Shown here piece by piece: positions 6,931 to 59,740 of a DNA stretch of 64,000 nucleotides (position 1 is its first letter; each line of letters opens with the position of its first letter). Under the pieces are notes generated by a model that did not search any database, was not told where the DNA came from, and worked only from the letters and a program-made list of their open reading frames with translations. Origin of the DNA: Thermoanaerobaculia bacterium (GTDB lineage Bacteria; Acidobacteriota; Thermoanaerobaculia; Gp7-AA8); contig DASPMO010000054.1 in assembly GCA_035627015.1 (NCBI GenBank), positions 32,136 through 96,135 on the forward strand, in the 5' to 3' direction. Position numbers and translations under genes: made by a program.

Positions 6931-8663
6931 GCCCGCACCGATAGGGAGACGGTGAAGATCCCCCAGTCGTCGATGCGCTGCTCCAGCTTGCGGAAGCCCG
7001 CGCGCTCCACGAGCTGGTCCATCTCCCCCTGCGAGCGGCGCCGCATCACCCACGCCTCGCCGCCGCGGTGGCTGGTCAGCGCGCGCGCGATCAGCTCGAG
7101 CTGCGGGTGCCACGGCTGGCCGGTATAGACGAGGTATCCCCCCGCCGGGACGGCATCGGCGATCCCCGCGAGCGAGCGCGCCACGAGGTCGTTGTCGCCG
7201 AAGAGCTCGTAGAGTCCGGAGACGATGGCCAGCGTCGGACGCGGGGTCACCGCGGCGAGGGAGGCGCGGTCGAAGGCGTCGCCCTGCACGAAGCGCGCGA
7301 CGTCACCCAGTCCCTTCGACTGGATCATGGCCGCGCCCTGGCGCACATTCAGCTCGCTGTAATCGCGCAGGAGGATCGAGTCGGGACGCGTGGCCGCGCC
7401 GTTCAGCGCCTCGAGCACGTAGCGTCCGTGTCCGGCGGCGACGTCCATCACATGTACCGGCTGGCCCGCCTCGCGCAGCTTCTCCATCGCCAGGCGGATC
7501 AGCTCCTCGACGTGCACCTTGCGCCGGCGGATACCGCGCCAGCCGATCGACTGCAGGTAGTTCCTGTCGATCACGCGGCCCAGGAGCGAGGGGCTGTCGG
7601 GCTGGTTGCGGTAGACGTAATCGAGCGTGCTGCCGGAGTCGAAGCCCGTCTCGTGGCCGAGCTTCAGGCCGTTCGACAACGCGCCGCCGAGGCGCATGCC
7701 CGCGCGCGTCGCCGCCCAGTACAGGCCGCGCGGCGAGAACGGCGAGAGCGGCGTGGCCAGTTCGTCCGCCTCCTGCCGCGTCGGGCCGGTCCGGTGCGAC
7801 TGCGTGAGGTCGACGGTGACCGGCGGCTCGGCGAAGCGCTTTTCGATGAATGTACGCGCGAGCTGCACCGCTTTGGCGCGCTCTTTTTCGCCGAGGGTGT
7901 CGTGGTAGAAGCCGGGCAGCACGTGCCGCTCCTTGACCGTGCTGCCGAGGCGGTTGAAGAAGTCGTGCTGCGGCTTGTGGTGCACGACGAAGTCGGAGCC
8001 GGAGATGAGCAACTGCAGCGGCACGGTGATGGCCTGCGCGTCGGCCACCACCCGCTCCGCGGCCGCGTACAGCTCCAGGAGGATGTTGACGGAGATGTCG
8101 CGCGTGATGAGCGGGTCGGCGTCGAACGACTCGATGCGCCGCGGGTCGTGGGTGAGGAACTTCGACTTCACGTAGCTCTTCACCACGAAGTTGCCGCGCA
8201 GCTTCTGCATCAGCGCCAGCCCCGGCCGCGCCAGCGGGACGTACAGCTTGACCTTGAACGCGGGCGAGGCCAGGACGGCGCAGCGCACCTTCGGCGCGTA
8301 GTCGTGCAGCCACGTCGCGGCCAGCACGGCGCCGACGCTCTGCGCGATCACGGCCACGTTCTCGATGCCGTGCGTGCCGGCGATCCCGCCGACGAAGTCG
8401 TTTACGTCGCGCACGGAGGTGGCGAAGCTCGGGCTGTGTCCGCGCTCGCCGGGCGAGCGGCCGTGGCCGCGCGCGTCCCACGCGTAGAAGGCATACCCGG
8501 GAAGATCCAGCTCGTCGATGAGATGCGCCATGCGTCCGGAGTGCTCGTGCCCGCGGTGGAACAGCACGATGGCGCCTTTGGCATTCTCGGCCGGCCAGTG
8601 CCGGTAGAACAGCTCCACGCCGTCGAACGTGCGGAAGCTCTTCTCCTCAGACGGACGATTCAC
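6927..8663 (-). CDS. Bifunctional alpha/beta-hydrolase (lysophospholipase/monoglyceride-lipase-like) - class I SAM-dependent methyltransferase
   Basis: N-terminus: HRGHEHSGR...AQSVGA nucleophile elbow and DTLGE. C-terminus: VMDVAAGHGRY SAM-binding motif I. 578 aa. Overlaps both neighbouring genes. Confidence 0.75.
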   Translation of the reverse strand: MNRPSEEKSFRTFDGVELFYRHWPAENAKGAIVLFHRGHEHSGRMAHLIDELDLPGYAFYAWDARGHGRSPGERGHSPSFATSVRDVNDFVGGIAGTHGIENVAVIAQSVGAVLAATWLHDYAPKVRCAVLASPAFKVKLYVPLARPGLALMQKLRGNFVVKSYVKSKFLTHDPRRIESFDADPLITRDISVNILLELYAAAERVVADAQAITVPLQLLISGSDFVVHHKPQHDFFNRLGSTVKERHVLPGFYHDTLGEKERAKAVQLARTFIEKRFAEPPVTVDLTQSHRTGPTRQEADELATPLSPFSPRGLYWAATRAGMRLGGALSNGLKLGHETGFDSGSTLDYVYRNQPDSPSLLGRVIDRNYLQSIGWRGIRRRKVHVEELIRLAMEKLREAGQPVHVMDVAAGHGRYVLEALNGAATRPDSILLRDYSELNVRQGAAMIQSKGLGDVARFVQGDAFDRASLAAVTPRPTLAIVSGLYELFGDNDLVARSLAGIADAVPAGGYLVYTGQPWHPQLELIARALTSHRGGEAWVMRRRSQGEMDQLVERAGFRKLEQRIDDWGIFTVSLSVRA

Positions 8664-25688: not shown

Positions 25689-25762
25689 TGGCTGGGAGAC
25701 AGGGACTCGAACCCCGATTCATCGGTCCAGAGCCGATTGTCCTACCATTGAACGATCTCCCA
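25689..25762 (-). tRNA. tRNA-Gln (anticodon CTG)
   Basis: Manual cloverleaf. Acceptor TGGGAGA/TCTCCCA (U1-A72, typical of bacterial tRNA-Gln). D-stem GTTC/GGAC. Anticodon stem ATCGG/CCGAT with loop CTCTGGA. T-stem CGGGG/CCCTG with loop TTCGAGT. Discriminator G plus encoded CCA. Confidence 0.8.
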
Positions 25763-33890: not shown

Positions 33891-34204
33891 AGCCCGTCCT
33901 GGTCCTGACCACCACCGGCGCGGACTTTGACGCGCGCGCCCTCGCGCATGCTCTGGTCGAGGCGCGCGTGGCCGCCTGTGTGAACATCGTCGAGCGCATC
34001 CACTCGGTCTACCGGTGGGAAGGCCGCGTGGCCGATGACGCCGAGCAGTTGCTGATCATCAAGACCAGCGACGAGCGGGTCGCGGCGCTGCGGGAGGAGC
34101 TGTTCAGGCGGCATCCCTACGACGTGCCGGAGTTCGTGGTCGTGCCGGTCGCGGAGACGTCAGACGCCTACGGCGCGTGGCTGCTTTCGTCGGTAGCGCC
34201 GTAA
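33887..34204 (+). CDS. cutA: Divalent-cation tolerance protein CutA
   Basis: 105 aa ...VLTTTGADFDARALAHALVEARVAACVNIV...YRWEG...; TTG start overlapping the previous stop. Confidence 0.75.
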   Translation: MKPVLVLTTTGADFDARALAHALVEARVAACVNIVERIHSVYRWEGRVADDAEQLLIIKTSDERVAALREELFRRHPYDVPEFVVVPVAETSDAYGAWLLSSVAP

Positions 34205-36535
34205 CACAAAAAACACCACCACCCCGAGGATCGTCACCAGGGTGATGTTCCGCCCGCGCGTGAACGCCTCCGGGTGAAAGACGACGCGCAGGTGGTGCTT
34301 CCCCTTCGGCACGAAGACGCCGATGAAGGCGTGATTGGCGTAGTGCGTCTCGACGCGTTTGCCGTCGATGTACGCGCGCCAGCCCGGCCACTTCGTGTCG
34401 GAGATGACCACCCACCCGTCCAGGTCCATGGTGGCGTCGATCTCGTAGGCCAGCCCATCGCGCCGCGTGACCAGCGTGCCGGGGCCGTTGGAGATCTGGT
34501 GCGCCGGGTACTGCGGCACGGCGATCCAGGCCGTGTCGGCGAAATCGGTGGTGAAGCGCATGCCGCGCAGCACGGCCTCGTCGGTGCGCTCGTAGCGGAT
34601 GTGGCGCGGCACGAACGCGCGCGGCACGACGCGCGTGTTCTCGAACAGGCGGTGATGGCGGTCCTGCAGGACGAGCTTCCACTGCTCGTCGGGCTGCTGC
34701 TCGAGCGAGCCGATGGCGTACTTGACGTTGAGGAAGGAGAGGAACGTCTTCGAGCGGTCCTCGACGATGTTGTAGGAGACGGGCATCGCGCGCGACCAGA
34801 GCGGATACGTCTCGTGGAGGCGCTGGAAGGTCATGGCCTCGTAGCCGCGCGGGTCCTCCAGGCCGTAGAGGGCCGCCGTGTCGGGAACGAGCGCGTAGTG
34901 CATCCCCACGACCCGGAACGGCGTGGCCGGATCGTCCTGCAGATACTGGAAGACGGGGATGGCCGGATAGAACGCCTTCTCCGGCAGCGCCGGATACATC
35001 CTCCCGTCCTCCCACACCCGCTGCACGAGCACGAGCGCGAGGATCCAGCGCGGGTCTCTCCGGAACAGGAGCAGCGCGCCGAGGGCCACCAGCGGAACCA
35101 GCTCCGCCAGCGTGAGCGAAGCGATGACCGCCGGATCGACCCCCGAGCGGATCTCCGAGTCGCGCAGCAACGCCGCCCCGATCGCCAGACCAATCGCCAA
35201 CAACGCAACGGGTGCCAAACGTAGGACGGGTGCTAAACGTAGGACGGGCTTCAGCCCGTCCGGTCGGGCTGAAGCCCGACCTACGCCGTCCACCGCAAAC
35301 GCCGCCAGCACGCAAAGCGCGAACACCGCCGCGAACCCCAGCCGCTCATTCAAAGCAATATCGAACAACGGCAGCGCATGCAGCAGGTCCCCCACCGGCC
35401 AGGCGTTCAGCCCCGCCAGCGCCATGAACGCGAAGAACCCGAAGAAGAACCACGTGTCCCGCCGCCGGTACAGCAGCCCGAGCAGCGCCAGGGCCAGCAC
35501 CACGCTCCCCACCCGCATCGGGTACGCGTCCCATTTCGGCGCGTGCCCCCCTCCCTCCATCCGCCCCCCCGCGAACGGGAAGAGCGACGTCGCCGCGCGC
35601 GCGCCGACCGCCTCCGGCGGCACGTCGAACGGCGCGGCGGCGTAGGCGTCGCGGCGGAAGCGGTACTCCATCGTGTGCGGCGTGACGAAGAAGAACGGCA
35701 GCAGCGAGATCGCGGTCAGCAGCAGCGCCAGCACGCCGCAGAGCGCGGCCAGCGCGATCGTGCGCGGCCGCTTCGTGACGATGACTTCATAGAGGCCGTA
35801 GATCGAACCGACGAAGACGATGTGCAGCACCGACTCCGGATGCCCGGCGAAGACGACCAGCACGAGCGCCAGCGTGAGGAGCACCGCCGCGCGCACATTG
35901 GTCTCGCGCACGACCAGGCGCACGCCGAGGAAGACCAGCGGCAGGAACACCCAGATCCGCCCCAGCGGCCAGGCCACGAAGAGCGCGAGCAGCGCGCAGA
36001 ACGTGTAGCCGGCCGCGGCGATGAGCGCGGCCGTCTCGCCGCAGCCGAGGGCGCGGACGAAGGCGAAGGTGAACAGCGCGCAGAGGAAGAAGGTGAAGGC
36101 GGCGCCGAAGGTCAGCGCCTGCGCGTGCGGGAGGAGCAGGCCGAGGAGCTGGACCGCGTCGTAAGGGGCGGCCTGCATGTTCGCGGCGAGGATCGTCCCG
36201 CAGAGAAGGTACGGGTTCCAGACCGGCCATTCACCCTTGGCCAGCGCCTGCCGCACCGCGCTCTGCCACGGCATCATCTGCATGTAGAGGTCGGAGAGGC
36301 CGGGGTGGTACGGCTTCTCCACGCCGTAGTCGCGCGCGTAGTTGTTGAGCGGCTCGGAGAGGAACGGCAGGTCGATCGGGGCGTAGACGCGGCCGGTGAG
36401 CAGGGCCCGCCCGGTGAAGCAGAGCGGCAGGAGGATCAGCACGATCGCCGCCGTCCGGCTGACGGGCGCGACGAAGCGGCGCCAGACGGCGATCAGGACG
36501 AGCGTGGCGGCCGCGTAGAGAACGATCGCAAGCAA
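34160..36535 (-). CDS. Large polytopic membrane protein, YfhO-like (putative membrane glycosyltransferase family); tandem paralog 1
   Basis: 791 aa. About 13 TM helices in the N-terminal ~480 aa plus a C-terminal soluble domain. TTG start. Contains an in-frame family-B REP (RASARPDGLKPVLRLAPVLRLAP). Confidence 0.6.
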   Translation of the reverse strand: MLAIVLYAAATLVLIAVWRRFVAPVSRTAAIVLILLPLCFTGRALLTGRVYAPIDLPFLSEPLNNYARDYGVEKPYHPGLSDLYMQMMPWQSAVRQALAKGEWPVWNPYLLCGTILAANMQAAPYDAVQLLGLLLPHAQALTFGAAFTFFLCALFTFAFVRALGCGETAALIAAAGYTFCALLALFVAWPLGRIWVFLPLVFLGVRLVVRETNVRAAVLLTLALVLVVFAGHPESVLHIVFVGSIYGLYEVIVTKRPRTIALAALCGVLALLLTAISLLPFFFVTPHTMEYRFRRDAYAAAPFDVPPEAVGARAATSLFPFAGGRMEGGGHAPKWDAYPMRVGSVVLALALLGLLYRRRDTWFFFGFFAFMALAGLNAWPVGDLLHALPLFDIALNERLGFAAVFALCVLAAFAVDGVGRASARPDGLKPVLRLAPVLRLAPVALLAIGLAIGAALLRDSEIRSGVDPAVIASLTLAELVPLVALGALLLFRRDPRWILALVLVQRVWEDGRMYPALPEKAFYPAIPVFQYLQDDPATPFRVVGMHYALVPDTAALYGLEDPRGYEAMTFQRLHETYPLWSRAMPVSYNIVEDRSKTFLSFLNVKYAIGSLEQQPDEQWKLVLQDRHHRLFENTRVVPRAFVPRHIRYERTDEAVLRGMRFTTDFADTAWIAVPQYPAHQISNGPGTLVTRRDGLAYEIDATMDLDGWVVISDTKWPGWRAYIDGKRVETHYANHAFIGVFVPKGKHHLRVVFHPEAFTRGRNITLVTILGVVVFFVLRRYRRKQPRAVGV
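35215..35288. repeat. Family-B REP hairpins (1.5 copies), intragenic and in-frame
   Basis: CAAACGTAGGACGGGTGCTAAACGTAGGACGGGCTTCAGCCCGTCCGGTCGGGCTGAAGCCCGACCTACG. Confidence 0.6.
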
Positions 36536-36628
36536 CGTTCGCGACGGTAAAAGGTAAACGGCAAAAGGTCAAAGCCGGTGTTGCCCGTACGCGAAGCGTC
36601 TGGACTGCGGCAGTCCAGACGCTTCGCG

Positions 36629-38737
36629 TTACCTGGAACGCCGGGCACCGCGAGCAACCAGCAACACAGCAACCAGCAACGCTACCGCGGAGATCGCCCG
36701 CCCCCGCGTGAACGACTCCGGCAGATACACCAGCCGCACGCGATGCGCGCCCGCCGGCACGTACACGCCGAGGAAGGCGTGGTTGGCGTAGTGCGGCCGC
36801 ACGGCGCGGCCGTCGACGTAGGCGCGCCAGCCCGGCCAGTGGGTCTCGGAGATCACCACCCACCCCGCGCGCTGCATGGTGGCCTCGAGCTCGTACTCGA
36901 GTCCCCTGCGGCGGATGGAGACGCGTCCCGCCCCGTTGGGCGCGTCGTGCGGCTCGTATGCGTCCGTCTCAATCCAGACCGTGGAAGCGAACTCGGTGGC
37001 GTTCTTCATCTCCTCGGCCGCGTTCCCGCGCACGTAGCGCACGCGCTCCGGGACGAACGCGCGCGGCAGGACGCGCGGGTTCTCGAGCAGGCGCGTGTCG
37101 CGGTCGGCGGCGCGGACGCTCCAGCCGGGCGGCACGGCCACGTTCCCGTGCGCCAGCGCGTAGCGGATATTGAGAAAGGAGAGAAACGGCCGCGAGAGGT
37201 CGTCGACGGCGTTGAACCAGGCCCGCTGATAGCGTGACCAGAGCGGATACGTCTCGTAGAGGCGCACGAAGGTCATGGCCTGGTAGCCGCGGGCATCCTC
37301 CAGCTCGTAGAGGGCGGCGTTGTTCGGGATGAGCGCGGAGCCGGCGCCGGTGAAGCGCGCGTCCTTGGGGATGCTCGCCAGGAGCGGCACGCGCGGGTAG
37401 AAGACGCGCTTGTCGAGGGCGGGATAAAAGTCGCCGTCCTCGTTCACCCGCTCCAGGAGCACGAGCGCGAGCAGCGCGATGGCGAAGCCGCGCTTCGGAA
37501 TGCGGTCGACGGCCATCGCCGCCAGCATGGCCATGGCGAACGCCGCCGCGAACGCCAGCCGCTCGTTGATGGCGATGTCGAACAGCGGCAGCGCGTGCAG
37601 CGCGTGCGCGACCGGCCACGTCCCGAAGGTGGCCAGGAGGCAGACGACGGCCATGACGCCCCACCCCCAGGCCCTCCTCTGAAACAGCGCCGCGACCGCG
37701 AGCAGCATCACCACCACCCCCACGCGCGCCGACAGCGGATCCCATCCCGGCCTGTTCGACTCCCCGTGCGAGAAGGGGACGAACGTCTTCACCATCCGCT
37801 CCCGCCGCACCTCCGGCGAGACGATCACGTCGTAGCTCGTCGGTGCATACAGCTCCCGCCGGATCTTGTACTCCAGCGTCTCCGGCGCCGCCTCCGCAAA
37901 CGGCAGCAGATAAATCGCCCCCAGCGCCAACGCCATGAGCCCCGCAAAGAACGCGGAGCGTGCTGAACGTAGGTCGGGCTTCAGCCCGACCCCATACACC
38001 GCCCCCACGGCCACCACATGCAGCACCGACTCCGGATGCCCGGAGAAGATCACCAGCACGAACGCCGCGGTGAGCAGCACCCACCGCCGCTCCCGCACCG
38101 CGAACAGCACCAGCGGCAGCCAGGCCCACGTCCGCGCCAGCGGCCAGCCGACGAAGAAGGCCATCATCCCGCAGAAGGTGAACCCGGCCGCCGCCACCAG
38201 CGCGGCGATCTCCTTCAGCCCCGTCGCACGCGCGAACGCGAACGTGAAGAACGCCGCGATGAAGAAGGTCATCGAAGCGCCGAACGTCAGCGCGTCCGGC
38301 AGCGGCAGCAGAAATCCGAGGAGCTGCAGCGGGTCGTACACGGCCGGCTGTGCCGCCGCGGCCAGGATGTCGCCGTTGAGGATGAACGGATTCCAGAGCG
38401 GCCATTCCCCCTGCGACCATGCCCAGCGCACCGCCTTCTGCCACGGGATGATCTGGCAGTGCAGGTCCGAGAGCGCGATCTCGTGCGGCCGCGCCACCCC
38501 GAAGTCGCGCGCATAGTCGCGCAACGGCTCCGCCGTGAACGGCAGGTCGATCGGCGCGTAGACCCGCCCCGTGAGCATCGCCTTCCCCGTGAAGACGAGC
38601 GGCAGCGCGATCAGCGCGATCGCCGCGGCCACGCTCACGCGCTGGACGAACCGGCTCCAGAGGAAGGAGACGGCCGCGGTGGTGATCAGGTACAGAGCGA
38701 GGGCCAAAGCGTGCGGGAGTCTAGACGAGAGGCTCAC
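36629..38737 (-). CDS. Large polytopic membrane protein, YfhO-like; tandem paralog 2
   Basis: 702 aa with blocks collinear to paralog 1 (WNPFILNGDILAAAAQPAVYDPLQLLGFLLP vs WNPYLLCGTILAANMQAAPYDAVQLLGLLLP). In-frame REP (GLKPDLRSARSA). Its start codon lies inside octamer repeat array A. Confidence 0.6.
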   Translation of the reverse strand: MSLSSRLPHALALALYLITTAAVSFLWSRFVQRVSVAAAIALIALPLVFTGKAMLTGRVYAPIDLPFTAEPLRDYARDFGVARPHEIALSDLHCQIIPWQKAVRWAWSQGEWPLWNPFILNGDILAAAAQPAVYDPLQLLGFLLPLPDALTFGASMTFFIAAFFTFAFARATGLKEIAALVAAAGFTFCGMMAFFVGWPLARTWAWLPLVLFAVRERRWVLLTAAFVLVIFSGHPESVLHVVAVGAVYGVGLKPDLRSARSAFFAGLMALALGAIYLLPFAEAAPETLEYKIRRELYAPTSYDVIVSPEVRRERMVKTFVPFSHGESNRPGWDPLSARVGVVVMLLAVAALFQRRAWGWGVMAVVCLLATFGTWPVAHALHALPLFDIAINERLAFAAAFAMAMLAAMAVDRIPKRGFAIALLALVLLERVNEDGDFYPALDKRVFYPRVPLLASIPKDARFTGAGSALIPNNAALYELEDARGYQAMTFVRLYETYPLWSRYQRAWFNAVDDLSRPFLSFLNIRYALAHGNVAVPPGWSVRAADRDTRLLENPRVLPRAFVPERVRYVRGNAAEEMKNATEFASTVWIETDAYEPHDAPNGAGRVSIRRRGLEYELEATMQRAGWVVISETHWPGWRAYVDGRAVRPHYANHAFLGVYVPAGAHRVRLVYLPESFTRGRAISAVALLVAVLLVARGARRSR
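37966..37994. repeat. Family-B REP hairpin, intragenic and in-frame
   Basis: GAACGTAGGTCGGGCTTCAGCCCGACCCC. Confidence 0.6.
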
Positions 38738-38850
38738 AGGCTCATAGGCTCACAGGCTCATAGGCTCACAGGCTCATAGGCTCATAGGCTCACAGGTATA
38801 CAGGAGCTCCTGTGAGCCTGTGTGCCTGTGAACCTGTGAGCCTCGACCGA
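38725..38850. repeat. Octamer inverted array A: (CTCAyAGG)x8 ... center ... (CCTGTGAG)x4
   Basis: Tandem 8-bp units arranged head-to-head, able to form a long periodic hairpin. Confidence 0.7.
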
Positions 38851-38997
38851 CGCCAGTTCCTCCAAGCCGCCGCCCTCGCCGCGGCGGGGGGGTGAAGGGT
38901 GGCAAACATCTGAGGCCCGGCGCGCCCGGCATCGCGAAGGTCGAGCTCAGCGACGACGGCGGAAAGCGTGGCATTCCGTCGAGGTCGAGGTGACGGC

Positions 38998-39296
38998 ATG
39001 ATCCGCCTCCTGCTCTTCCTCCTGGCCGCGCTGCCGCAGCCCTCCACGCAGTTCAAGCAGCTCCCGCCCGGCGCCGGGAAAGCCCAGGTCGAGGCCGCCT
39101 GCTACCAGTGCCACGCCGCCGACCTCCTCGCCAGCAGCGCCTCACCGAAAAGCAATGGCTCGCCTCGGTCGAGAAGATGATCCGCTGGGGCGCCGACGGC
39201 CCGCCGAAAGACAAGGACGTCATCGTCCGCTACCTGGCGAAGCACTACGGGCCGGGGAACAAGTTCACGCCGACGAAGATCGCGCCGGTGAAGTAG
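38998..39296 (+). pseudogene. Small c-type cytochrome (CxxCH) disrupted by a single-base frameshift (or sequencing error)
   Basis: MIRLLLFLLAALP...AACYQCHAADLLASS ends at about 39130. The reading frame continues in another frame as QRLTEKQWLASVEKMIRWGADGPPKDKDVIVRYLAKHYGPGNKF. Confidence 0.5.
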
Positions 39297-39362
39297 GCGC
39301 ATAGGCACATAGGCTCATAGGAGCCCCTGTGAGCCTATGAGCCTATGAACCTATATCCCTAC
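39295..39362. repeat. Octamer inverted array B: (CATAGGCn)x3 ... (CCTATGAG/CCTGTGAG)x4
   Basis: Same CTCATAGG/CCTATGAG unit as arrays A and C. Together with A it flanks the cytochrome c pseudogene. Confidence 0.7.
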
Positions 39363-39416
39363 ATCCCGTAGAACGGGAACACGATCCCCCCGCCCGGAGT
39401 TAGATTGGTTCCTCAC

Positions 39417-42290
<2,874 letters not shown>

Positions 42291-42291
42291 G

Positions 42292-42545
42292 GCGGTTCCA
42301 CGCGCGTGTGTCCCGCGGGATCACGCGTGCATCCGCGGGAAACACGCGTGTATCCGCGAGGAACACGCGTGCATTCGCGGGACACAGGCGTGCGTCCACG
42401 GAAAACACGCGTGTGTCTTACGGGAAACACGCGTGTGTCCTTGGAAAACACGCATGTGTCCACGGGAAACACGCGTCTGTCCGCGGGAAACGCGCATGTG
42501 TCCCGGAGGGCACACGCACGAGGCTTGCGGGACACGACGCTGAAA
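42292..42545. repeat. Tandem array of about 10 copies of a 21-bp double-palindrome unit CACGCGTG-TG-TCCCGCGGGA-AA
   Basis: Direct head-to-tail copies with point variants. No intervening spacers, so not a CRISPR array. Confidence 0.8.
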
Positions 42546-43980: not shown

Positions 43981-44919
43981 GTGGCGAAGTCGCAGGTCGT
44001 CATCCCAACCGATGCAGTGGACGTGATCCTGGGGTTCGGCGACCGCGAGGTGCGCCTGACGAACCTCCGCAAGCCGTTCTGGAAGAAGCTCGGCATCACC
44101 AAGCGCGACCTGCTGCAGTACTACGCCGATGTCTCGCAGTGGCTGCTGCCGCACCTGCACGACCGGGCCATGGTCATGAAGCGCTACCCCAACGGCGCGG
44201 AGGGGGACTTCTTCTACATGAAGCGCGCGCCCGACCCGCGGCCGGAGTGGATCGAGATCTGCGACATCGACCACGGCTCGGCGGGGCGCATCAACTTCCC
44301 GATCGTGCAGGACCTGCCGTCGCTGCTCTGGCTGATCAACCTCGGCTGTATCGATCTCAACCCGTGGTACTCGCGCTGCGGCGACACGGACCGCCCCGAC
44401 TTTCTGCACTTTGATCTGGATCCGGGTCCGGGCGCGAACTTCGCCCGCGTGCGCGAGGTGGCCCTGCGCACGCGCGACATCCTCGCCTCGCTGCAGATCC
44501 CGACGTATCCGAAGACCACCGGCTCGAAGGGCATCCACGTCTACATCCCCATCAAGCTCGGGCCGACGCAGAAGGAAGTGTGGGCCTTCGCCAAGGCCCT
44601 GGCCCTCGAGCTCGAGAAACGCCATCCGAAGATCATCACCGCCGAGTACCGCAAGGTGAACCGTCCCTACGGCCGCGTGCTCGTCGACTACAACCAGAAC
44701 GCGTGGGGCCGCACGCTGGCCTCCATCTACTCCATCCGCCCGACCTCGTTCGCCGGCGCGTCGATGCCGGTGACGTGGGAGGAAGTGGAAGGGGGCGTGA
44801 GCGTGGACGACTTCCGCATCGACAACGCCCTCGAGCGGCTGCGCGAGGTGGGCGACCTCTGGAAGCCGGTCGTGGCGAAGACGAAGCGCGTCGACCTTTA
44901 CAAGGTGTTCCGCAAATGA
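43981..44919 (+). CDS. NHEJ LigD polymerase/primase domain protein (stand-alone)
   Basis: ...VMKRYPNGAEGDFFYMKRAP...LHFDLDP...KTTGSKGIHVYIPI... blocks typical of LigD Pol/PrimPol. Confidence 0.85.
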   Translation: MAKSQVVIPTDAVDVILGFGDREVRLTNLRKPFWKKLGITKRDLLQYYADVSQWLLPHLHDRAMVMKRYPNGAEGDFFYMKRAPDPRPEWIEICDIDHGSAGRINFPIVQDLPSLLWLINLGCIDLNPWYSRCGDTDRPDFLHFDLDPGPGANFARVREVALRTRDILASLQIPTYPKTTGSKGIHVYIPIKLGPTQKEVWAFAKALALELEKRHPKIITAEYRKVNRPYGRVLVDYNQNAWGRTLASIYSIRPTSFAGASMPVTWEEVEGGVSVDDFRIDNALERLREVGDLWKPVVAKTKRVDLYKVFRK

Positions 44920-45950
44920 CCTTACCGATCCACCCTCCGTACGCGCCGATGGAAGCGAAGCGCGTCGACAAGATCCCTACCGGCGACCACTGGCAGTTCG
45001 AGCCGAAGTGGGACGGCTTCCGGGCCATCGTCTTCCGCGACGGCAACGACGTGTACGTGCAGTCGAAGGCCGGCCAGCCGCTGGCGCGCTACTTCCCCGA
45101 GGTCGTGGAAGCGGCGCTGCAACTGAAGCAGAAACAGTTCGTGCTCGACGGCGAGATCGTCGTGCCGGTGGGCGGCACGCTCTCCTTCGACGACCTGCTG
45201 CAGCGCATCCATCCCGCCGAGTCGCGCATCCGCAAGCTCGCCGAGACGACGCCGGCGCACTACTACGTCTTCGACCTGCTGGCCCTGAAGACGAAGGACT
45301 TCACCAAGCTGCCGATCGAGGACCGCCGCGACAAGCTGGAGGAGCTCTTCGAGTCGGTGAAGCACGAGCTCGTGCATCTCTCTCCCGCGACGCAGGACCG
45401 CAAGCTGGCCCTGGAGTGGTTCAAGAAGTTCGGCGCGGTCGGGCTGGACGGCGTGATGGCCAAGCGCCTCGGCGAGCCGTACCACTCTGGCGATCGCGAG
45501 GGGATGGTCAAGGTCAAGCACCTCAAGACCGCGGACTGCGTCGTCGGCGGCTTCCGATATGGAGAAGGGACGAAGACCGTCGGCTCGCTCCTCCTCGGTC
45601 TCTACGACGATGAAGGGCGCCTGGTGCACATCGGCCACACCTCGTCGATCAAGCACGCCGACCGCGCCGAGCTGACGAAGAAGCTGGAGAAGCTGCGCGG
45701 GAAGAACCCGTTCGAGGTGCGCGTCCCCGGCGCGCCGAGCCGCTGGGCCAGCGAGAGGAGCAGCGAGTGGGAGCCGGTCAAGCCGAAGCTCGTCTGCGAG
45801 GTCGAGTACGACTATTTCTCCCAGGGCCGCTTCCGCCACGGCTCGAAGTTCCTGAGGTGGAGGCCGGACAAGGCGCCGGAGCAGTGCACGATGGAGCAGG
45901 TTTCCCCGAAACGCGCGAAAGGCAAGACGCTGGCAACGCTGTCATCCTGA
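44916..45950 (+). CDS. ATP-dependent DNA ligase (LigD ligase-domain type, stand-alone)
   Basis: KWDGFRAI (KxDG adenylation motif I), motifs ...DGEIVV..., ...VGLDGVMAKR..., OB domain. ATGA overlap with the Pol gene. Confidence 0.9.
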   Translation: MTLPIHPPYAPMEAKRVDKIPTGDHWQFEPKWDGFRAIVFRDGNDVYVQSKAGQPLARYFPEVVEAALQLKQKQFVLDGEIVVPVGGTLSFDDLLQRIHPAESRIRKLAETTPAHYYVFDLLALKTKDFTKLPIEDRRDKLEELFESVKHELVHLSPATQDRKLALEWFKKFGAVGLDGVMAKRLGEPYHSGDREGMVKVKHLKTADCVVGGFRYGEGTKTVGSLLLGLYDDEGRLVHIGHTSSIKHADRAELTKKLEKLRGKNPFEVRVPGAPSRWASERSSEWEPVKPKLVCEVEYDYFSQGRFRHGSKFLRWRPDKAPEQCTMEQVSPKRAKGKTLATLSS

Positions 45951-45952
45951 AG

Positions 45953-46030
45953 CCGCGTAGACGGCGAAGGATCCCCGCCTACGGAGCGAGCACGGGTTTC
46001 AGCAGGGGATCCTTCGCCGTCTACGCGGCT
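45953..46030 (+). terminator. GC-rich hairpin after the ligase gene (GCCGCGTAGACGGCGAAGGATCCCC ... GGGGATCCTTCGCCGTCTACGCGGC)
   Basis: 25-bp perfect stem immediately after the stop codon. No U-tract. Confidence 0.45.
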
Positions 46031-46119
46031 CAGGATGACAGGTTGCCTGAGTTCTGGGATTTCTCTGGGACGTGACGGCGCGGGGATGACGGGGGGCGGA
46101 CCCCTGGTTTTCACAGGGC

Positions 46120-47493
46120 GTGAAAAGACTGCTGGTTGTCGCGCTGTTCGCCTTTCCCGCGCTCGCGCAAACGGTTCGCATCACCGACAAGCCGTCCGGC
46201 CTCGTCAGCGGCGTGCTGAACGTCCCCGTGGTGGCCGAGGCGCCGGTGGAGCGGCTGGAGCTGCTCATCAACGGCGTGCCGTACACGCAGACCAGCGGCA
46301 CGCGCATGACCGCGCAGGTGAACGTCGGGCACTACATCCGCCGCATGCGCATGCGCGCGGTCGGTTATGACGCCGAAGGGAAAATCGTGGCCGAGGACGA
46401 GATGGTCGTGAACGATCCCCGTCCGCCGTTCCGCGTGAAGATGCAGGGACCGCAGCAGTGGCCGGAGAGCGGGAGCGCCGAGCTGCACGCGAACGTGCTC
46501 CGTCCCGCGGAGATCGTCATCAGCGGCGTCGACTTTTACATGGGGGAAGAGAAGGTCGGCACGGCCACGAGCGCGCCGTACCGCGTGAGCGTCGACGCGA
46601 CGAAGTTCCCCGGCGCGGTGTACGCGCGCGTGGTGGCGCGCAGCGCGCGCGGCGAGGAGGCGAACGACGTCTGGTTCTTCGGCGACCGCGCCCACCTGCA
46701 GACCGACGTCACGGTGCAGCAGATCCCGGTGTCGGTCGCGGACGGTGCGCCGCTGCGGGCGGACCAGCTCACGCTCCTCGACAACGGCACGCGCCGCAAC
46801 GTGGAGAACCTCGTCGCGGCCAGCGACCAGCCGCTGCACGTCATCCTGCTGATCGATTACTCGGAGTCGATGCTCGAGGAACTCCCGGTGGTCAAGGCGG
46901 CGGCCAAGGAGTTCGCGCGCAAGCTGCTGCGGCCGCAGGACCGCCTGGCCGTGGCCGGGTTCAACCAGCGCACGTTCTGGCTGACCGGCTACACGAACGA
47001 CTGGAACAGCGCCGCGGCGGCCGTGGACCGCGTGCAGCCGATCGGCGAGACGCACCTCTACGACAGCGTGATCGAGATGCTGTACCAGATCCAGAAAATC
47101 CCCGGACGCGCGGCGCTGGTCGTGCTCACGGACGGCGTCGACCAGGGGAGCACGTTCACGCTCGATCACCTCGTGCACTACGCGCGCTACGCCGGTGTGC
47201 CGGTCTACCCGGTGGTGAAGAACAAGTCGCTTTCGCGCTGGATGAAGCTCGGCGTGGGACGGCTGCAGGCCAAGCGCCTCGACCGCATCGCCGAGGACAC
47301 AGGGGCAACGTACTTCATCATCCAGAGCGAGCGCGAGCTGGAGCGCGTCTACACCCGCATCGCCCAGGAGCTGCGCCAGCAGTACCAGATCGTCTTCCAT
47401 TCCGAGGCCAACGTCCCGGACCAGTGGAGGTCGTTGCAGGTGGTGTCGGCTGGCGGGCAGAACCTTCGCGCTCCGAGAGGCTATTTTCCGTGA
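46120..47493 (+). CDS. Secreted von Willebrand factor type A (VWA) domain protein
   Basis: Signal VKRLLVVALFAFPALAQ. VILLIDYSESM...GETHLYDSV...LVVLTDGVD (MIDAS-like motifs). Confidence 0.8.
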   Translation: MKRLLVVALFAFPALAQTVRITDKPSGLVSGVLNVPVVAEAPVERLELLINGVPYTQTSGTRMTAQVNVGHYIRRMRMRAVGYDAEGKIVAEDEMVVNDPRPPFRVKMQGPQQWPESGSAELHANVLRPAEIVISGVDFYMGEEKVGTATSAPYRVSVDATKFPGAVYARVVARSARGEEANDVWFFGDRAHLQTDVTVQQIPVSVADGAPLRADQLTLLDNGTRRNVENLVAASDQPLHVILLIDYSESMLEELPVVKAAAKEFARKLLRPQDRLAVAGFNQRTFWLTGYTNDWNSAAAAVDRVQPIGETHLYDSVIEMLYQIQKIPGRAALVVLTDGVDQGSTFTLDHLVHYARYAGVPVYPVVKNKSLSRWMKLGVGRLQAKRLDRIAEDTGATYFIIQSERELERVYTRIAQELRQQYQIVFHSEANVPDQWRSLQVVSAGGQNLRAPRGYFP

Positions 47494-56793: not shown

Positions 56794-56882
56794 GTGAGCG
56801 CCGTCACGCCGCTGGACTTTCCGGCGCGACGACTGCAAGAATAGTGAACAGCCCCCAGCGCAAGAGAGTGAAGGAATGGGAG

Positions 56883-57647
56883 ATGCGGCTCAAGGTACTC
56901 GGCGCGTACGGCGCGTCCGATGCTGAACATAATCTGACCGGGTACCTGATCGACGACTGGTTCGCGGTGGATGCCGGCACTCTCACGTCGAAGCTGTCAT
57001 TTGCGCAACAGTCACGCGTGCAAGCCGTTTTCATCACGCATCCGCACGCCGACCACATCCGCGACCTGCCGCACCTGATCCACAACCGCTTCTCGCAGCC
57101 GACCCAGCCATTGACGATCTTTGCCGCCAAGGACGTGCTCGAGCTGCTGGTGCGCGACGTCTTCAACGGCATCGTCTGGCCGGACTTTTCCGAGATCGTC
57201 TCGCCGATCAACAACAAGCCCGCCGTGCAGTACCGCGCCCTGAACCCGGGGAAGCGCATCGTCTTCAACGACGTCGGCATCACCGCGGTGCCGGTCGATC
57301 ACCAGATCCCCGCGTCGGGTGTGCTCCTGGAGATCAACGGCCAGTCGATCGTCTTCACCGGCGACACCGGCCCGACCCAGGAGATCTGGAAGCGGACGAA
57401 CAAGATGCAGAACGTGGTGGCGGTGGTGACGGAGGCGTCGTTCCCGAACGACCAGCAGTCGCTGGCCGACGAGACCGCCCACCTCTCGCCGAATACCTTC
57501 GGCGAGGAGCTGAAGAAGATCACCGTCGACGCCCCCGTCTACGCCAGCCACCGCAAGATCCCGTTCGAGCGCGACATCGAGTCGCAGATCCGGAATCTGC
57601 GGGACCGGCGGGCGCGGGTGCTGCTCGAGAAGAACTACACGCTGTAG
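56883..57647 (+). CDS. MBL-fold metallo-hydrolase, class-II 3',5'-cyclic-nucleotide phosphodiesterase-like
   Basis: MRLKVLGAYGAS...AVDAGT...FITHPHADH (HxHxDH)...VFTGDTG. Confidence 0.65.
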   Translation: MRLKVLGAYGASDAEHNLTGYLIDDWFAVDAGTLTSKLSFAQQSRVQAVFITHPHADHIRDLPHLIHNRFSQPTQPLTIFAAKDVLELLVRDVFNGIVWPDFSEIVSPINNKPAVQYRALNPGKRIVFNDVGITAVPVDHQIPASGVLLEINGQSIVFTGDTGPTQEIWKRTNKMQNVVAVVTEASFPNDQQSLADETAHLSPNTFGEELKKITVDAPVYASHRKIPFERDIESQIRNLRDRRARVLLEKNYTL

Positions 57648-57780
57648 GCTCATAGGTACATAGGCTCACAGGCTCACAGGAGAGCCCTATGAGCCTATGA
57701 GCCTGTGCGCCTATGAGCCTATGAGCCTATGAACCTATGAGCCTATGAGCCTATGAGCCTATGCGCCTGTGCGCCTCAGT
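57645..57780. repeat. Octamer inverted array C: (CTCAyAGG)x4 ... (CCTATGAG)x~10
   Basis: Same 8-bp unit as arrays A and B. Sits between convergent gene ends. Confidence 0.7.
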
Positions 57781-59740
57781 TCACCCCCAGCTCCCGATAG
57801 ATCGCCTTCGGATCGAACACCTTCCCATCCTTCACCACCCGCACGACCCGCCGGATCTCCGAGATGTTCCTCGTCGGATCCCCATCCACGATGATGAAGT
57901 CCGCGAGCTTCCCCGGCTCGATCGTCCCGAGGTCCGCCTCGCGCTCGAGCACCTGCGCGGGGACGAGCGTGGCGATGCGCAGCACCTCGGCCGGCGGGAT
58001 GCCGGCGCGGACGTAGTTCTCCAGCTCGCGGTGCAGGGCGAAGCCGGCCAGGCCGTCCGTCCCCGCCACGATGGTCACGCCGCTGCGATGCAGCTCCGCG
58101 ACGAGATCGAGCATGCGCTGGTACGACGCGCGGTAGCGCTCGTCCATCCCCTCCGGCACGGGAAGCCCCCCCGCCAGGAACCAGCGCCGCACCTGCGGCG
58201 GCACGCGCTCCGCGATCATCGCGTACGACGGCTCGAGCTCTCCCTTGCGCGCGGTGAACATCCCCTCGAAGACCGTCATCGTCGGATCGACGACGATCTT
58301 TCGGCTCCGCAGTTTCTCGATGAACGCCCGCACTTCGGGCGACTGCAGGTCGAGGTCCGCGCCGCGCTTGGCCGGCTCGGTGAAGCGCGCCGGCGTGCGC
58401 GTGTCCGTCACGTCCGGCATGAAGTTGAGGAAGAGCATATTGACGTGCTGGATCTCGTCGTAGCCGGCGTCGACCGCTTTCTCCGCGGTCATCCCCGCGG
58501 GGATGTGGCCGCTCACGCGCAGCCCTTTCTCGTGCGCGTAGCGCGTCAGGAACGGCACGAGCTCCGGCTTGATGGAGCTGTAGATCTTCAGCCCCTCGTA
58601 CTTGCGCGAGACGAGGAAGTCGATGGCCTTGCGCCCCTCCTCTTCCGTCGCCACGAGGAGGTTCGTCGGTCCCTGGAACGGCCCCGGCCCGTCGATCAGG
58701 CCGGCCAGCACGAGCCGCGGTCCGATGGCCTCGCCGGAGTCGTATTTGTCGCGCAGCGCGGTGACCGTGTCGCTGTCGTTGCCGAGGTCGCGGGCGGAGG
58801 TGATGCCGGCCGCGATGTTCAGCAGGCCGTCGGTGTCGCCGAGATGCCCGTGCATGTCCCAGAGGCCGGGGAGGAGCACGCCCCCCTTGGCGTCGATCAT
58901 CTCTCCGGCGCTGTACGGGCTGTCGCTGCCGACGCTGGCAATGCGGTTGCCCTGGGTGACGACGGTGGTCGGCTCGGAGAGCCTGCCCGTGCGCGGATCG
59001 AACACGCGCGCGTTCACGACGATGACCCGCACCGGGTTGCCGGTCAGCCGCTTCGCGATCTCCGCGGCGCGCGACCGCCCGCGTTCATCCTGCGCGTCGA
59101 TGAGCTGTTTCACGTCGCCCTCGAAGCCTTCGCGGATGGTCGAGCTCCACGACGAGACGAGGCCGAAGAAGTTGCGGTCGTCGTCGAGCCAGACCTCGTA
59201 CGGCGTGAAGCCGATGCCGGAGATCTCGTACGCGGTGACGTGCGTGCCGCGCAGCGTGGCCTCGCCGACCTTGCGGATCGACGCCTCGCCGCCGCCCTGC
59301 AGCGGCAGCTTGCCGCCCGCCATCAGCAGCGCGCGCGAGAGAATGCCCCACTCCTCGGGCGGCCCATACATGCTGGTGTACAGCGCGCCCGCCTTCCCTT
59401 CGCCCGTTTCCGCGGTGCTCTTCCAGGTCACGCGGTCGCCGGTGGTGGTGAGGCGCTCCTCGACCGGCGTCTTGAGGTAGTCGTTGCCGGTCGTGACCAC
59501 GGACACCGGCAGGCCGCGCGCGTCGGTGCGCACGACGGTGTGGGTCTTCGGCCCGCGCCCGCGGTCGTTGAACTCGTAGTCGACGATCGTCTCGTCGCCG
59601 CTCGTCGTCACGACCTGCGTGCCGGCCTTGTTGGTGCTCATCAGCACCGTGTAGCGGCGCGTCTCCTCGCGCGCGGGCTGGTGCGCGCACGCTGCAACGA
59701 GCAGGATTGCCAGCAGACTATTTCTTTTCGACATCCGCAT
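57776..59740 (-). CDS. Amidohydrolase-family metal-dependent hydrolase, lipoprotein/secreted
   Basis: Lipobox LLVAAC. LPGLWDMHGHL (HxH)...SGHIP...GTDG. Confidence 0.8.
   Translation of the reverse strand: MRMSKRNSLLAILLVAACAHQPAREETRRYTVLMSTNKAGTQVVTTSGDETIVDYEFNDRGRGPKTHTVVRTDARGLPVSVVTTGNDYLKTPVEERLTTTGDRVTWKSTAETGEGKAGALYTSMYGPPEEWGILSRALLMAGGKLPLQGGGEASIRKVGEATLRGTHVTAYEISGIGFTPYEVWLDDDRNFFGLVSSWSSTIREGFEGDVKQLIDAQDERGRSRAAEIAKRLTGNPVRVIVVNARVFDPRTGRLSEPTTVVTQGNRIASVGSDSPYSAGEMIDAKGGVLLPGLWDMHGHLGDTDGLLNIAAGITSARDLGNDSDTVTALRDKYDSGEAIGPRLVLAGLIDGPGPFQGPTNLLVATEEEGRKAIDFLVSRKYEGLKIYSSIKPELVPFLTRYAHEKGLRVSGHIPAGMTAEKAVDAGYDEIQHVNMLFLNFMPDVTDTRTPARFTEPAKRGADLDLQSPEVRAFIEKLRSRKIVVDPTMTVFEGMFTARKGELEPSYAMIAERVPPQVRRWFLAGGLPVPEGMDERYRASYQRMLDLVAELHRSGVTIVAGTDGLAGFALHRELENYVRAGIPPAEVLRIATLVPAQVLEREADLGTIEPGKLADFIIVDGDPTRNISEIRRVVRVVKDGKVFDPKAIYRELGVN

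Follow-up and report, generated by a model that had tools for sequence, protein, structure and literature searches.

The window analysed here, a stretch of 64,000 nucleotides from a Thermoanaerobaculia bacterium (contig DASPMO010000054.1), carries three inverted arrays of an 8-bp unit that reads AGGCTCAY on one arm and RTGAGCCT on the other. These arrays, designated A, B and C (Table 1), are the subject of this work, and we propose that they are copies of a small, dispersed foldback repeat element. Arrays A and B lie between a gene encoding a YfhO-like membrane protein and uvrA, on both sides of the remains of a two-gene operon, and array C separates the convergent genes of an MBL-fold hydrolase and an amidohydrolase. 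The regions 38500-39600 and 57500-57950 were inspected and tandem units were called with Tandem Repeats Finder (TRF). With up to two mismatches, the two-unit 16-mer AGGCTCAYAGGCTCAY matches the window 27 times, always inside arrays A-C, for 0.10 matches expected. Inspection, TRF and this count, far above chance, all confirm the three octamer loci announced in a preliminary description of this DNA.

The left arm of array A comprises 8.4 units of AGGCTCAC/T according to TRF, or about 9 if the degenerate inner unit is counted. Its units alternate, and a 16-bp super-unit obtains a better TRF score. The centre of the array, AGGAGCTCCT, is located near 38801-38810 and is followed by a right arm of 4.4 units of CCTGTGAG. 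Array B begins at the TAG stop codon of the cytochrome c gene, has AGCC between its arms and is degenerate on the right out to 39361. In array C, the arms are separated by AGAGC. The centres of the three arrays resemble each other (AGGAGCTCCT, AGGAGCCCCT and AGGAGAGCCCT, respectively). The window copies, of 61-131 bp, consist of ends only and have no internal segment. The preliminary description had each run of octamers followed by the same number of inverted octamers: the tandem-then-inverted layout stands, but the equal numbers are wrong for A (8.4 + 4.4) and C (4.4 + 11.4).

Table 1. Octamer arrays and genes around them in the window (genes assigned by Pfam)
Feature	Position	Strand	Remarks
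Array A	38730-38843	no strand	left arm 38730-38796 plus one degenerate unit; right arm 38809-38843
Array B	39294-39354	no strand	left arm 39294-39321, 3.5 units; right arm 39326-39354, 3.6 units (TRF)
Array C	57646-57776	no strand	left arm 57646-57680, 4.4 units; right arm 57686-57776, 11.4 units (TRF)
sorA-like relic	38844..38997	+	TAT-signal remnant (RRQFLQAAALAAA) and two collinear fragments
Small CxxCH cytochrome c gene	38998..39296	+	PF09098-like; 99 aa when repaired
YfhO-like gene, second paralogue	34160-36535	-	assigned by Pfam
YfhO-like membrane protein gene	36629..38707	-	conserved TTG start 38707; longest open reading frame reaches GTG 38737
uvrA	39417..42290	+	ATG at 39417
MBL-fold hydrolase gene	56844..57647	+	TAG stop 57645-57647, the first bases of array C
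Amidohydrolase gene	57776..59740	-	TGA stop 57776-57778, overlapping the last base of array C

Each octamer can be described as a 7-nt core, AGGCTCA, followed by a loosely constrained 8th base that is often mismatched between arms. As previously predicted, each array folds as a long, periodically mismatched hairpin; this holds on either strand, with z-scores of -5.2 to -9.5. The unit itself provides TAG or TGA in all three frames of both strands, as well as ATG/GTG. The arrays belong to none of the usual classes of intergenic hairpins or repeats, as the preliminary description had already judged. Indeed, none of them matched Rfam 15 at the gathering threshold, the only match in the window being one tRNA (25692-25762), and no T-tailed terminator-like site found by a terminator consensus scan coincides with arrays A-C. 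The GTAG/CGTC tag of repetitive extragenic palindromes (REP) is not visible at the ends of the window arrays, nor at those of the copies from the SMAG_U1196 genome described below. Furthermore, CRISPR loci have direct repeats of 23-50 bp and unique spacers, whereas the units found here are 8 bp long, contiguous and arranged in inverted blocks.

The arrays fit very tightly between their neighbours. Array C spans to the base the gap between the two convergent stop codons, which agrees with its earlier placement between convergent gene ends, and the C-terminus of the amidohydrolase (...ELGVN*) is neither longer nor shorter than that of orthologues whose site is empty. Array B was correctly said to end close to uvrA (55-63 bp before its ATG). 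Array A had been described as overlapping the start codon of the YfhO-like gene; this is true under the longest-open-reading-frame rule only, since orthologues have an in-frame stop just upstream and share a conserved TTG start that matches position 38707, 23 nt outside the array. A public gene call on an identical contig also starts the gene at the GTG inside array A, but this GTG is, from the alignment with orthologues, an artefact of the longest-frame rule. Because the conserved start codon lies outside the array, a role of array A in phase variation (a function initially envisaged for the arrays) is unlikely in the case of YfhO.

The history of the locus between arrays A and B was deduced from the contigs encoding three homologues of the cytochrome, L096, L097 and L098 (L-numbers designate fetched comparison loci; pattern-selected loci are about 8 kb long). 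In these relatives, the genes follow the order YfhO (minus strand), a sorA-like molybdenum oxidoreductase (about 363 aa, PF00174 and PF03404), cytochrome c and uvrA, except that L098 has another upstream neighbour instead of YfhO. None of the three loci has AGGCTCAY arrays. In the window, about 950 bp of sorA are gone and about 150 bp of collinear relics remain, including two fragments (38917-38965 and 38966-39000) that are each 94% identical to L096 (3742-3790 and 3969-4003). Homology of the window to L096 and L097 extends to ...GGGAGTCTAGAC; the orthologues then have TACGCACATGGAT, which includes a spacer and the sorA ATG, and the window has GAG followed by array A. Therefore, array A sits at the former sorA start codon. 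The two frames of the cytochrome gene join between ...CHAADLLA and QQRLTEKQW, which is consistent with one lost C near 39132. The repaired protein has more than 200 intact homologues, mostly from Thermoanaerobaculia (about 97-112 aa and up to 90% identity for those listed). As noted previously, the gene is thus frameshifted: judged from the sequence, the frameshift is real, being either biological or an assembly error. The preliminary description mentioned a small cytochrome pseudogene between A and B. A broken gene is indeed present, but it is not alone, as sorA relics lie beside it. The comparison therefore points to a vertically inherited relic, the second gene of a decayed sorA-cytochrome c (sulfite-oxidase-like) operon, and not to cargo.

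To place the arrays in a wider frame, species-representative genomes were scanned with a three-unit pattern, which gave more than 94 stretches; the counts below come from the first 80 loci. Among the matches listed, at least 33 octamer loci belong to the Thermoanaerobaculia metagenome-assembled genome (MAG) SMAG_U1196 and at least 10 to Acidobacteria gp7 AA8. Further listed loci come from four other Thermoanaerobaculia MAGs and from other Acidobacteriota MAGs. The survey of related genomes suggested by the preliminary description thus revealed a dispersed family in Thermoanaerobaculia-like Acidobacteriota. The listed matches in Streptomyces, Treponema, Gemella, Rothia and others are one-directional, without inverted partner, and were not retained as members of the family. 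Nine additional matches were obtained in IMG/VR contigs (L180-L188). They are one-directional arrays, (AGGCTCAY)n of 3-12 units, on unrelated viral contigs of lower GC content, and probably reflect a coincidence of unit.

In the SMAG_U1196 copies, which measure 143-303 bp in total, exactly 4+4 units frame an internal segment of 75-250 bp. Each end consists of 32 bp (four octamers) and about 20 nt of subterminal consensus, the whole being (AGGCTCAN)4-AGYAGCRC..GC..CGCGAG ... CTCGCG..GCG.G.GCTRCT-(NTGAGCCT)4. Internal segments located at unrelated loci share 72-83% identity over 46-107 nt. [quoted passage not shown] Covariation of the arms in the MITE-like subterminal region is not significant (similarity of 0.60 within a copy versus 0.57 between copies, p = 0.06); arms that are no more alike within than between copies are expected if copies of a mobile family decay independently. 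Some copies are nested or in tandem (L010, L026, L028 and L049). The arms abut in the copies from the window, gp7 AA8 and SMAG_U3271, each of which has its own loop, and the 8th base is often mismatched. The octamer family appears specific to Thermoanaerobaculia-like Acidobacteriota, and the window arrays are probably related to the MITE-like 4+4 copies.

The octamer is not the only unit of this kind. TRF applied to all fetched loci detected 133 inverted-array pairs built from many different units, several per genome. An inverted partner accompanies 85/136 arrays of period 7 and 148/226 arrays of period 8 (63-65%), and almost none of those of periods 6, 9 or 12. In every unit family, arm sizes show a sharp mode at four units. 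Several units of the clade lack a G-tract (GTGCTGA, GATGAGC, GAATTGA and AGAATTA), and AGGCTCAY has only GG. Gene context was assigned with a simple codon-usage gene caller on the pattern-selected loci and the window. Among the 76 elements with an assigned context, 40 are flanked by co-directional, 11 by convergent and 18 by divergent genes, the rest being at locus edges or inside called genes; the median distance to the flanking stop for all 116 elements is 4-16 nt. For 50 elements between co-directional genes, sense and antisense folding showed no bias (22 versus 28, p = 0.17). The octamer family is one of many unit families that occur genome-wide in the clade and in every intergenic context. 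Since units carry TAG/TGA and neither 7 nor 8 is a multiple of three, three units suffice to place a stop in every frame, which fits the tolerance of arrays at gene ends.

Orthologous sites show how fast these structures change. At the site of array B, L097 has an inverted array of another octamer (AGTCTCAA/TTGAGACT), L096 has GGGCTTCAGCCC-type hairpins and L098 a palindrome with 25-bp arms. For the site of array C, 80 orthologous metagenome loci were examined, of which 76 could be evaluated: 15 have detectable inverted arrays, 34 another strong hairpin and 27 little or nothing. The units found there include GATGAGC, GTGATGA, GTGCTGA, AGTCTCAG, AGAGCTAT-like units and the 9-mer AGGACTCAT; other loci have plain hairpins or a GTCATCCYGAGC element, and L115 and L121 have no spacer whatever. 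In L106 and L102, the 9-mer occupies the place of AGGCTCAT in the window, in the same orientation, and the two may be related. A common ancestor of AGGCTCAT and the GATGAGC heptamers was also considered and dropped, their shared hexamer being on opposite arms. Downstream of the MBL-fold gene, L100, L103, L133 and L139 carry a palindromic repeat with the ends GTCATCCYGAGC...GCTCRGGATGAC, present as two tandem copies in L133. Elsewhere, an operon junction of 4 nt, empty in L030, is filled by an array in L039. Where L010 has two genes overlapping by ATGA, L025 has a 12+4 array; the last octamer of this array provides the ATG at which the downstream gene begins, and the upstream ORF extends into the array. 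Another junction has GGGCGCG arrays in one genome and GATGGCG arrays in another. Moreover, one orthologous site harbors GGTTGCGC, GAGTTGCT, GGTTGTTC or CGGTTGC arrays in lineages of about 90% flank identity, both arms having changed together. Overall, arrays do not differ where the flanks are 100% identical and are likewise unchanged at 95-99% flank identity; at about 90%, their copy number or unit differs. Copy number does therefore vary between related lineages; the preliminary description had proposed to look for length polymorphism between strains or reads.

We consider, with a probability of about 0.6, that the arrays are separate copies of a small foldback (palindromic) repeat element, dispersed by copy-and-insert and subsequently modified by slippage. 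The presence of the same octamer at unrelated sites, the homologous internal sequences and the filled and empty sites argue for a copy-and-insert family, and the unequal arms and differing unit counts argue for slippage after insertion. The element would consist of two inverted arms of tandem 8-bp units around a short centre, copies of which would have reached many unrelated intergenic sites through a copy-and-insert process. Copies would persist only in the few bases between genes, where the stops of the unit would keep neighbouring frames closed and its ATG/GTG would let them restart. After insertion, replication slippage would expand or contract the arms, giving 3-16 units, and template switching within the palindrome would probably keep the arms alike. 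In the window, the insertion of copy A into a 26-bp divergent spacer would have cost sorA its start codon, and the operon of sorA and cytochrome c would have decayed since then, sorA to relics and the cytochrome gene by a frameshift. Copy B sits after the cytochrome stop and copy C between the convergent stops. Once transcribed, a copy could fold, whichever strand is read, into an imperfect hairpin whose stem reaches up to about 28-44 bp, and this hairpin probably acts as a 3' barrier, an insulator or a processing site.

Several points weigh against this interpretation. No consistent target-site duplication was found in the flanks of 16 SMAG_U1196 copies and in three filled/empty comparisons, the latter spanning species that are about 75-92% identical, so that a duplication of 2-3 bp could escape; a putative GAC duplication at array A and a CG at L039 were too short and inconsistent to be counted. 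No array pair in the 8-kb loci encloses a transposase or another autonomous partner. An ORF beside a solo end in L004 was considered as such a partner and rejected, as it has PHP-domain matches only. In addition, neutral slippage does not explain the four-unit mode of all families. The exact UvrA protein of the window is found on only one other contig on record, which is 100% identical over 10.9 kb, and slippage within the population is therefore something that we infer; the same holds for the effect of the hairpin on RNA. Finally, orthologous sites carry different units whose two arms changed together. This implies either repeated replacement at a hot spot for palindromic insertion or concerted change in place. 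Template switching in quasi-palindromes is an established mutational mechanism that could yield such a concerted change of the arms.

Various known repeats share part of this architecture. The closest published parallel is provided by the inverted GGGAATC arrays of Xanthomonas. X. campestris and X. citri have about 186 arrays of this heptamer per genome, most with four units, including 70-75 close opposite-strand pairs that can form a stem-loop or a cruciform (Rehm et al. 2015, PMC4692102). They are intergenic, at a mean distance of 28 nt from the upstream ORF, and vary in length and sequence between related species; the four-unit mode was attributed to G-quadruplexes and the function was left unresolved (PMC4692102). 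The arrays described here likewise have tandem units of the 7-nt class, a four-unit mode, inverted pairing, an intergenic location near ORF ends and variability among relatives. Unlike Xanthomonas, with its one G-rich 7-nt unit, the octamer lacks G-tracts, belongs to another phylum and coexists with many 7- and 8-nt units per genome. Furthermore, some copies here have a conserved internal segment, and arrays occupy gaps of 0-4 nt, where they can provide genes with a start or stop codon. Since most units found here lack G-tracts, the G-quadruplex explanation of the four-unit mode cannot be general.

Like MITEs, the elements are small, intergenic and devoid of ORFs, with terminal inverted repeats, dispersed copies that have a related interior, and nested copies. 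Unlike for MITEs, no target-site duplication and, in the 8-kb loci, no insertion sequence with matching ends were found; their ends are made of tandem 8-bp units and many copies lack an internal segment. They share with REP/REPIN/BIME sequences a high copy number, a palindromic structure, a location at gene ends and inside operons, and the absence of target duplication. REP elements of Escherichia coli stabilise upstream mRNA. However, REP/REPIN elements are palindromes of 20-40 bp bearing the GTAG/CGTC tag, whereas arms are tandem arrays here, the tag is not visible and no RAYT gene was seen nearby. Like our arrays, the eukaryotic Foldback elements (Drosophila FB, Galileo and Tetris) have long inverted ends in which short sub-repeats stand in tandem; the number of units varies and the arms have little or nothing between them. 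Being kilobase-scale elements with known transposase partners, they are an architectural analogy only and homology is not implied. The TAACTGA heptamers of Beggiatoaceae and cyanobacteria are intergenic, occur in 2-6 copies a few nt from start codons and have stops in all three frames that limit their placement; all but one inverted case in 170 are direct (MacGregor 2015, PMC4679880). These repeats and the cyanobacterial STRR heptamers share the all-frame-stop logic with the arrays described here but are direct and form no hairpin. A literature search found the octamer dimer in none of the papers that it covered and nothing on repeats of Thermoanaerobaculia.

The arrays could instead be RNA hairpins maintained by selection, serving as the terminator of the clade or as a stabiliser or processing site of mRNA 3' ends, e.g. 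as a substrate of RNase III. We regard this as possible though unlikely. It would account for the strong folding on either strand, for arrays B and C immediately following stop codons, for the strong hairpin, variable in sequence among lineages, held by the junction after the MBL-fold stop in 49/76 orthologues, and for plain hairpins at the same sites in other lineages. However, a dedicated terminator is unlikely because there is no T/U tail, 18/76 elements lie between divergent genes and many are inside operons (with gaps of 0-4 nt in relatives), sense folds no better than antisense, and a large surplus of units is left unpaired, e.g. 11 versus 4 in array C. Some orthologues, moreover, lack a spacer altogether. 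It is plausible that the arrays have a milder influence on RNA, by acting as barriers, processing sites or REP-like stabilisers.

An origin in place, in which intergenic hairpins grow into inverted arrays by slippage and template switching without any transposition, seems unlikely. The inverted partner that arrays of periods 7 and 8 usually have, and those of periods 6, 9 or 12 almost never, would be consistent with it, as would the site that has several units at about 90% flank identity with both arms changed together, the 9-mer AGGACTCAT of L106/L102 at the AGGCTCAT site of the window and the loop that differs in each copy. Heptamer repeats are also reportedly slippage-prone in many bacteria (PMC4679880, PMC4692102). 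Such an origin does not explain why three unrelated sites in 64 kb share the identical octamer with 33 loci or more in one MAG and with several MAGs, nor why internal and subterminal sequences are homologous between unrelated loci. Furthermore, some empty sites have a spacer of 0-4 nt and no prior hairpin, and slippage alone is not expected to fix the mode at four units.

This mode also suggests that a protein could read the 7-nt core four times per arm, the arrays being binding sites for a transposase, a nucleoid or partition protein, or a post-transcriptional regulator. The conserved core, with its free and often mismatched 8th base, and the sharp four-unit mode of all families, as in Xanthomonas, are in line with this hypothesis, which we nevertheless find doubtful: the many unrelated units per genome would need many cognate proteins, a spacing of 7-8 bp places successive sites on different faces of the duplex, and no candidate protein was found. 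In a more speculative and equally improbable scheme, the 4+4 foldback arrays and the GGGAATC pairs of Xanthomonas would be products of one structure-reading system that installs or maintains hairpins of fixed size (four units, 28-32 bp) at gene boundaries, and the host would use these hairpins as frame-independent punctuation combining all-frame stops with an RNA processing or barrier site. A candidate for such a system would be a single-strand- or hairpin-specific transposition or template-switching enzyme. Finally, the initial suggestion that a small mobile unit carrying the cytochrome gene is bounded by A and B can practically be dismissed, even though these arrays flank the gene and are 82% complementary over 60 nt, because the cytochrome gene is intact and syntenic between sorA and uvrA in the three relatives devoid of AGGCTCAY arrays (the arrays, and not the whole A-cytochrome-B unit, are what the orthologous loci lack), sorA relics separate array A from it, every array is a complete palindrome by itself and array C has no cargo.

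Other features of the neighbourhood deserve mention. Between the two YfhO paralogues (36581-36621) lies a perfect plain hairpin with a 20-bp stem (ACGCGAAGCGTCTGGACTGC / GCAGTCCAGACGCTTCGCGT); therefore, ordinary hairpins coexist with arrays. Right after array B, the block 39355-39416 located 5' of uvrA (CCTACATCCCGTAGAACGGGAACACGATCCCCCCGCCCGGAGTTAGATTGG) is near-invariant in four lineages (the window and L096-L098), and everything 5' of it differs between them. This block, which may be a promoter or an SOS operator, includes the direct repeat GAAC..GAAC. The uvrA stop is immediately followed by about ten tandem repeats (42303-42517) of the 21-bp unit GGGAAACACGCGTGTGTCCGC. The unit contains an 18-nt imperfect palindrome with the core ACACGCGTGT, a motif present nowhere else in the window, and its 21-bp spacing, equal to two helical turns, suggests an array that is bound on one face. 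In the orthologue L097, a plain hairpin is all that is found there. Roughly the last 20 codons of uvrA in L097 (...VAKPQSRKVAKIAAKTATLRL*) come from an inverted octamer array, AGTCGCAA x4 / TTGAGACT x5 (7254-7349), and the uvrA tail of the window (42240-42290) looks like a degraded version of it. A coding 3' end can therefore absorb an array. Genes encoding a LigD primase-polymerase and an ATP-dependent DNA ligase (43981-46290) form a small DNA-repair cluster a short distance downstream of uvrA, from which they are separated by a gene of unknown function and a DJ-1/PfpI gene.

Compared with Xanthomonas-type arrays, our analysis brings an octamer unit, a new phylum, many coexisting families and, for some copies, MITE-like bodies. 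At the locus itself, the arrays mark a decayed sorAB-like operon. For annotation, they are a source of start codons and C-terminal tails called inside repeats, as for YfhO in the window and for the uvrA tail of L097. More generally, inverted arrays of 7-8-nt units, mostly with four units per arm, are widespread and diverse in an abundant soil clade, including in gaps of 0-4 nt. The preference for four units in families lacking G-tracts argues for a cause that is general and differs from G-quadruplexes. Should this cause be a mobilising or binding protein, the arrays would be prokaryotic foldback elements of a new kind; should it be an RNA function, they would be a clade-specific punctuation of transcripts. 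Their main interest lies in the four-unit mode that they share with Xanthomonas and in their extremely tight fit between genes.

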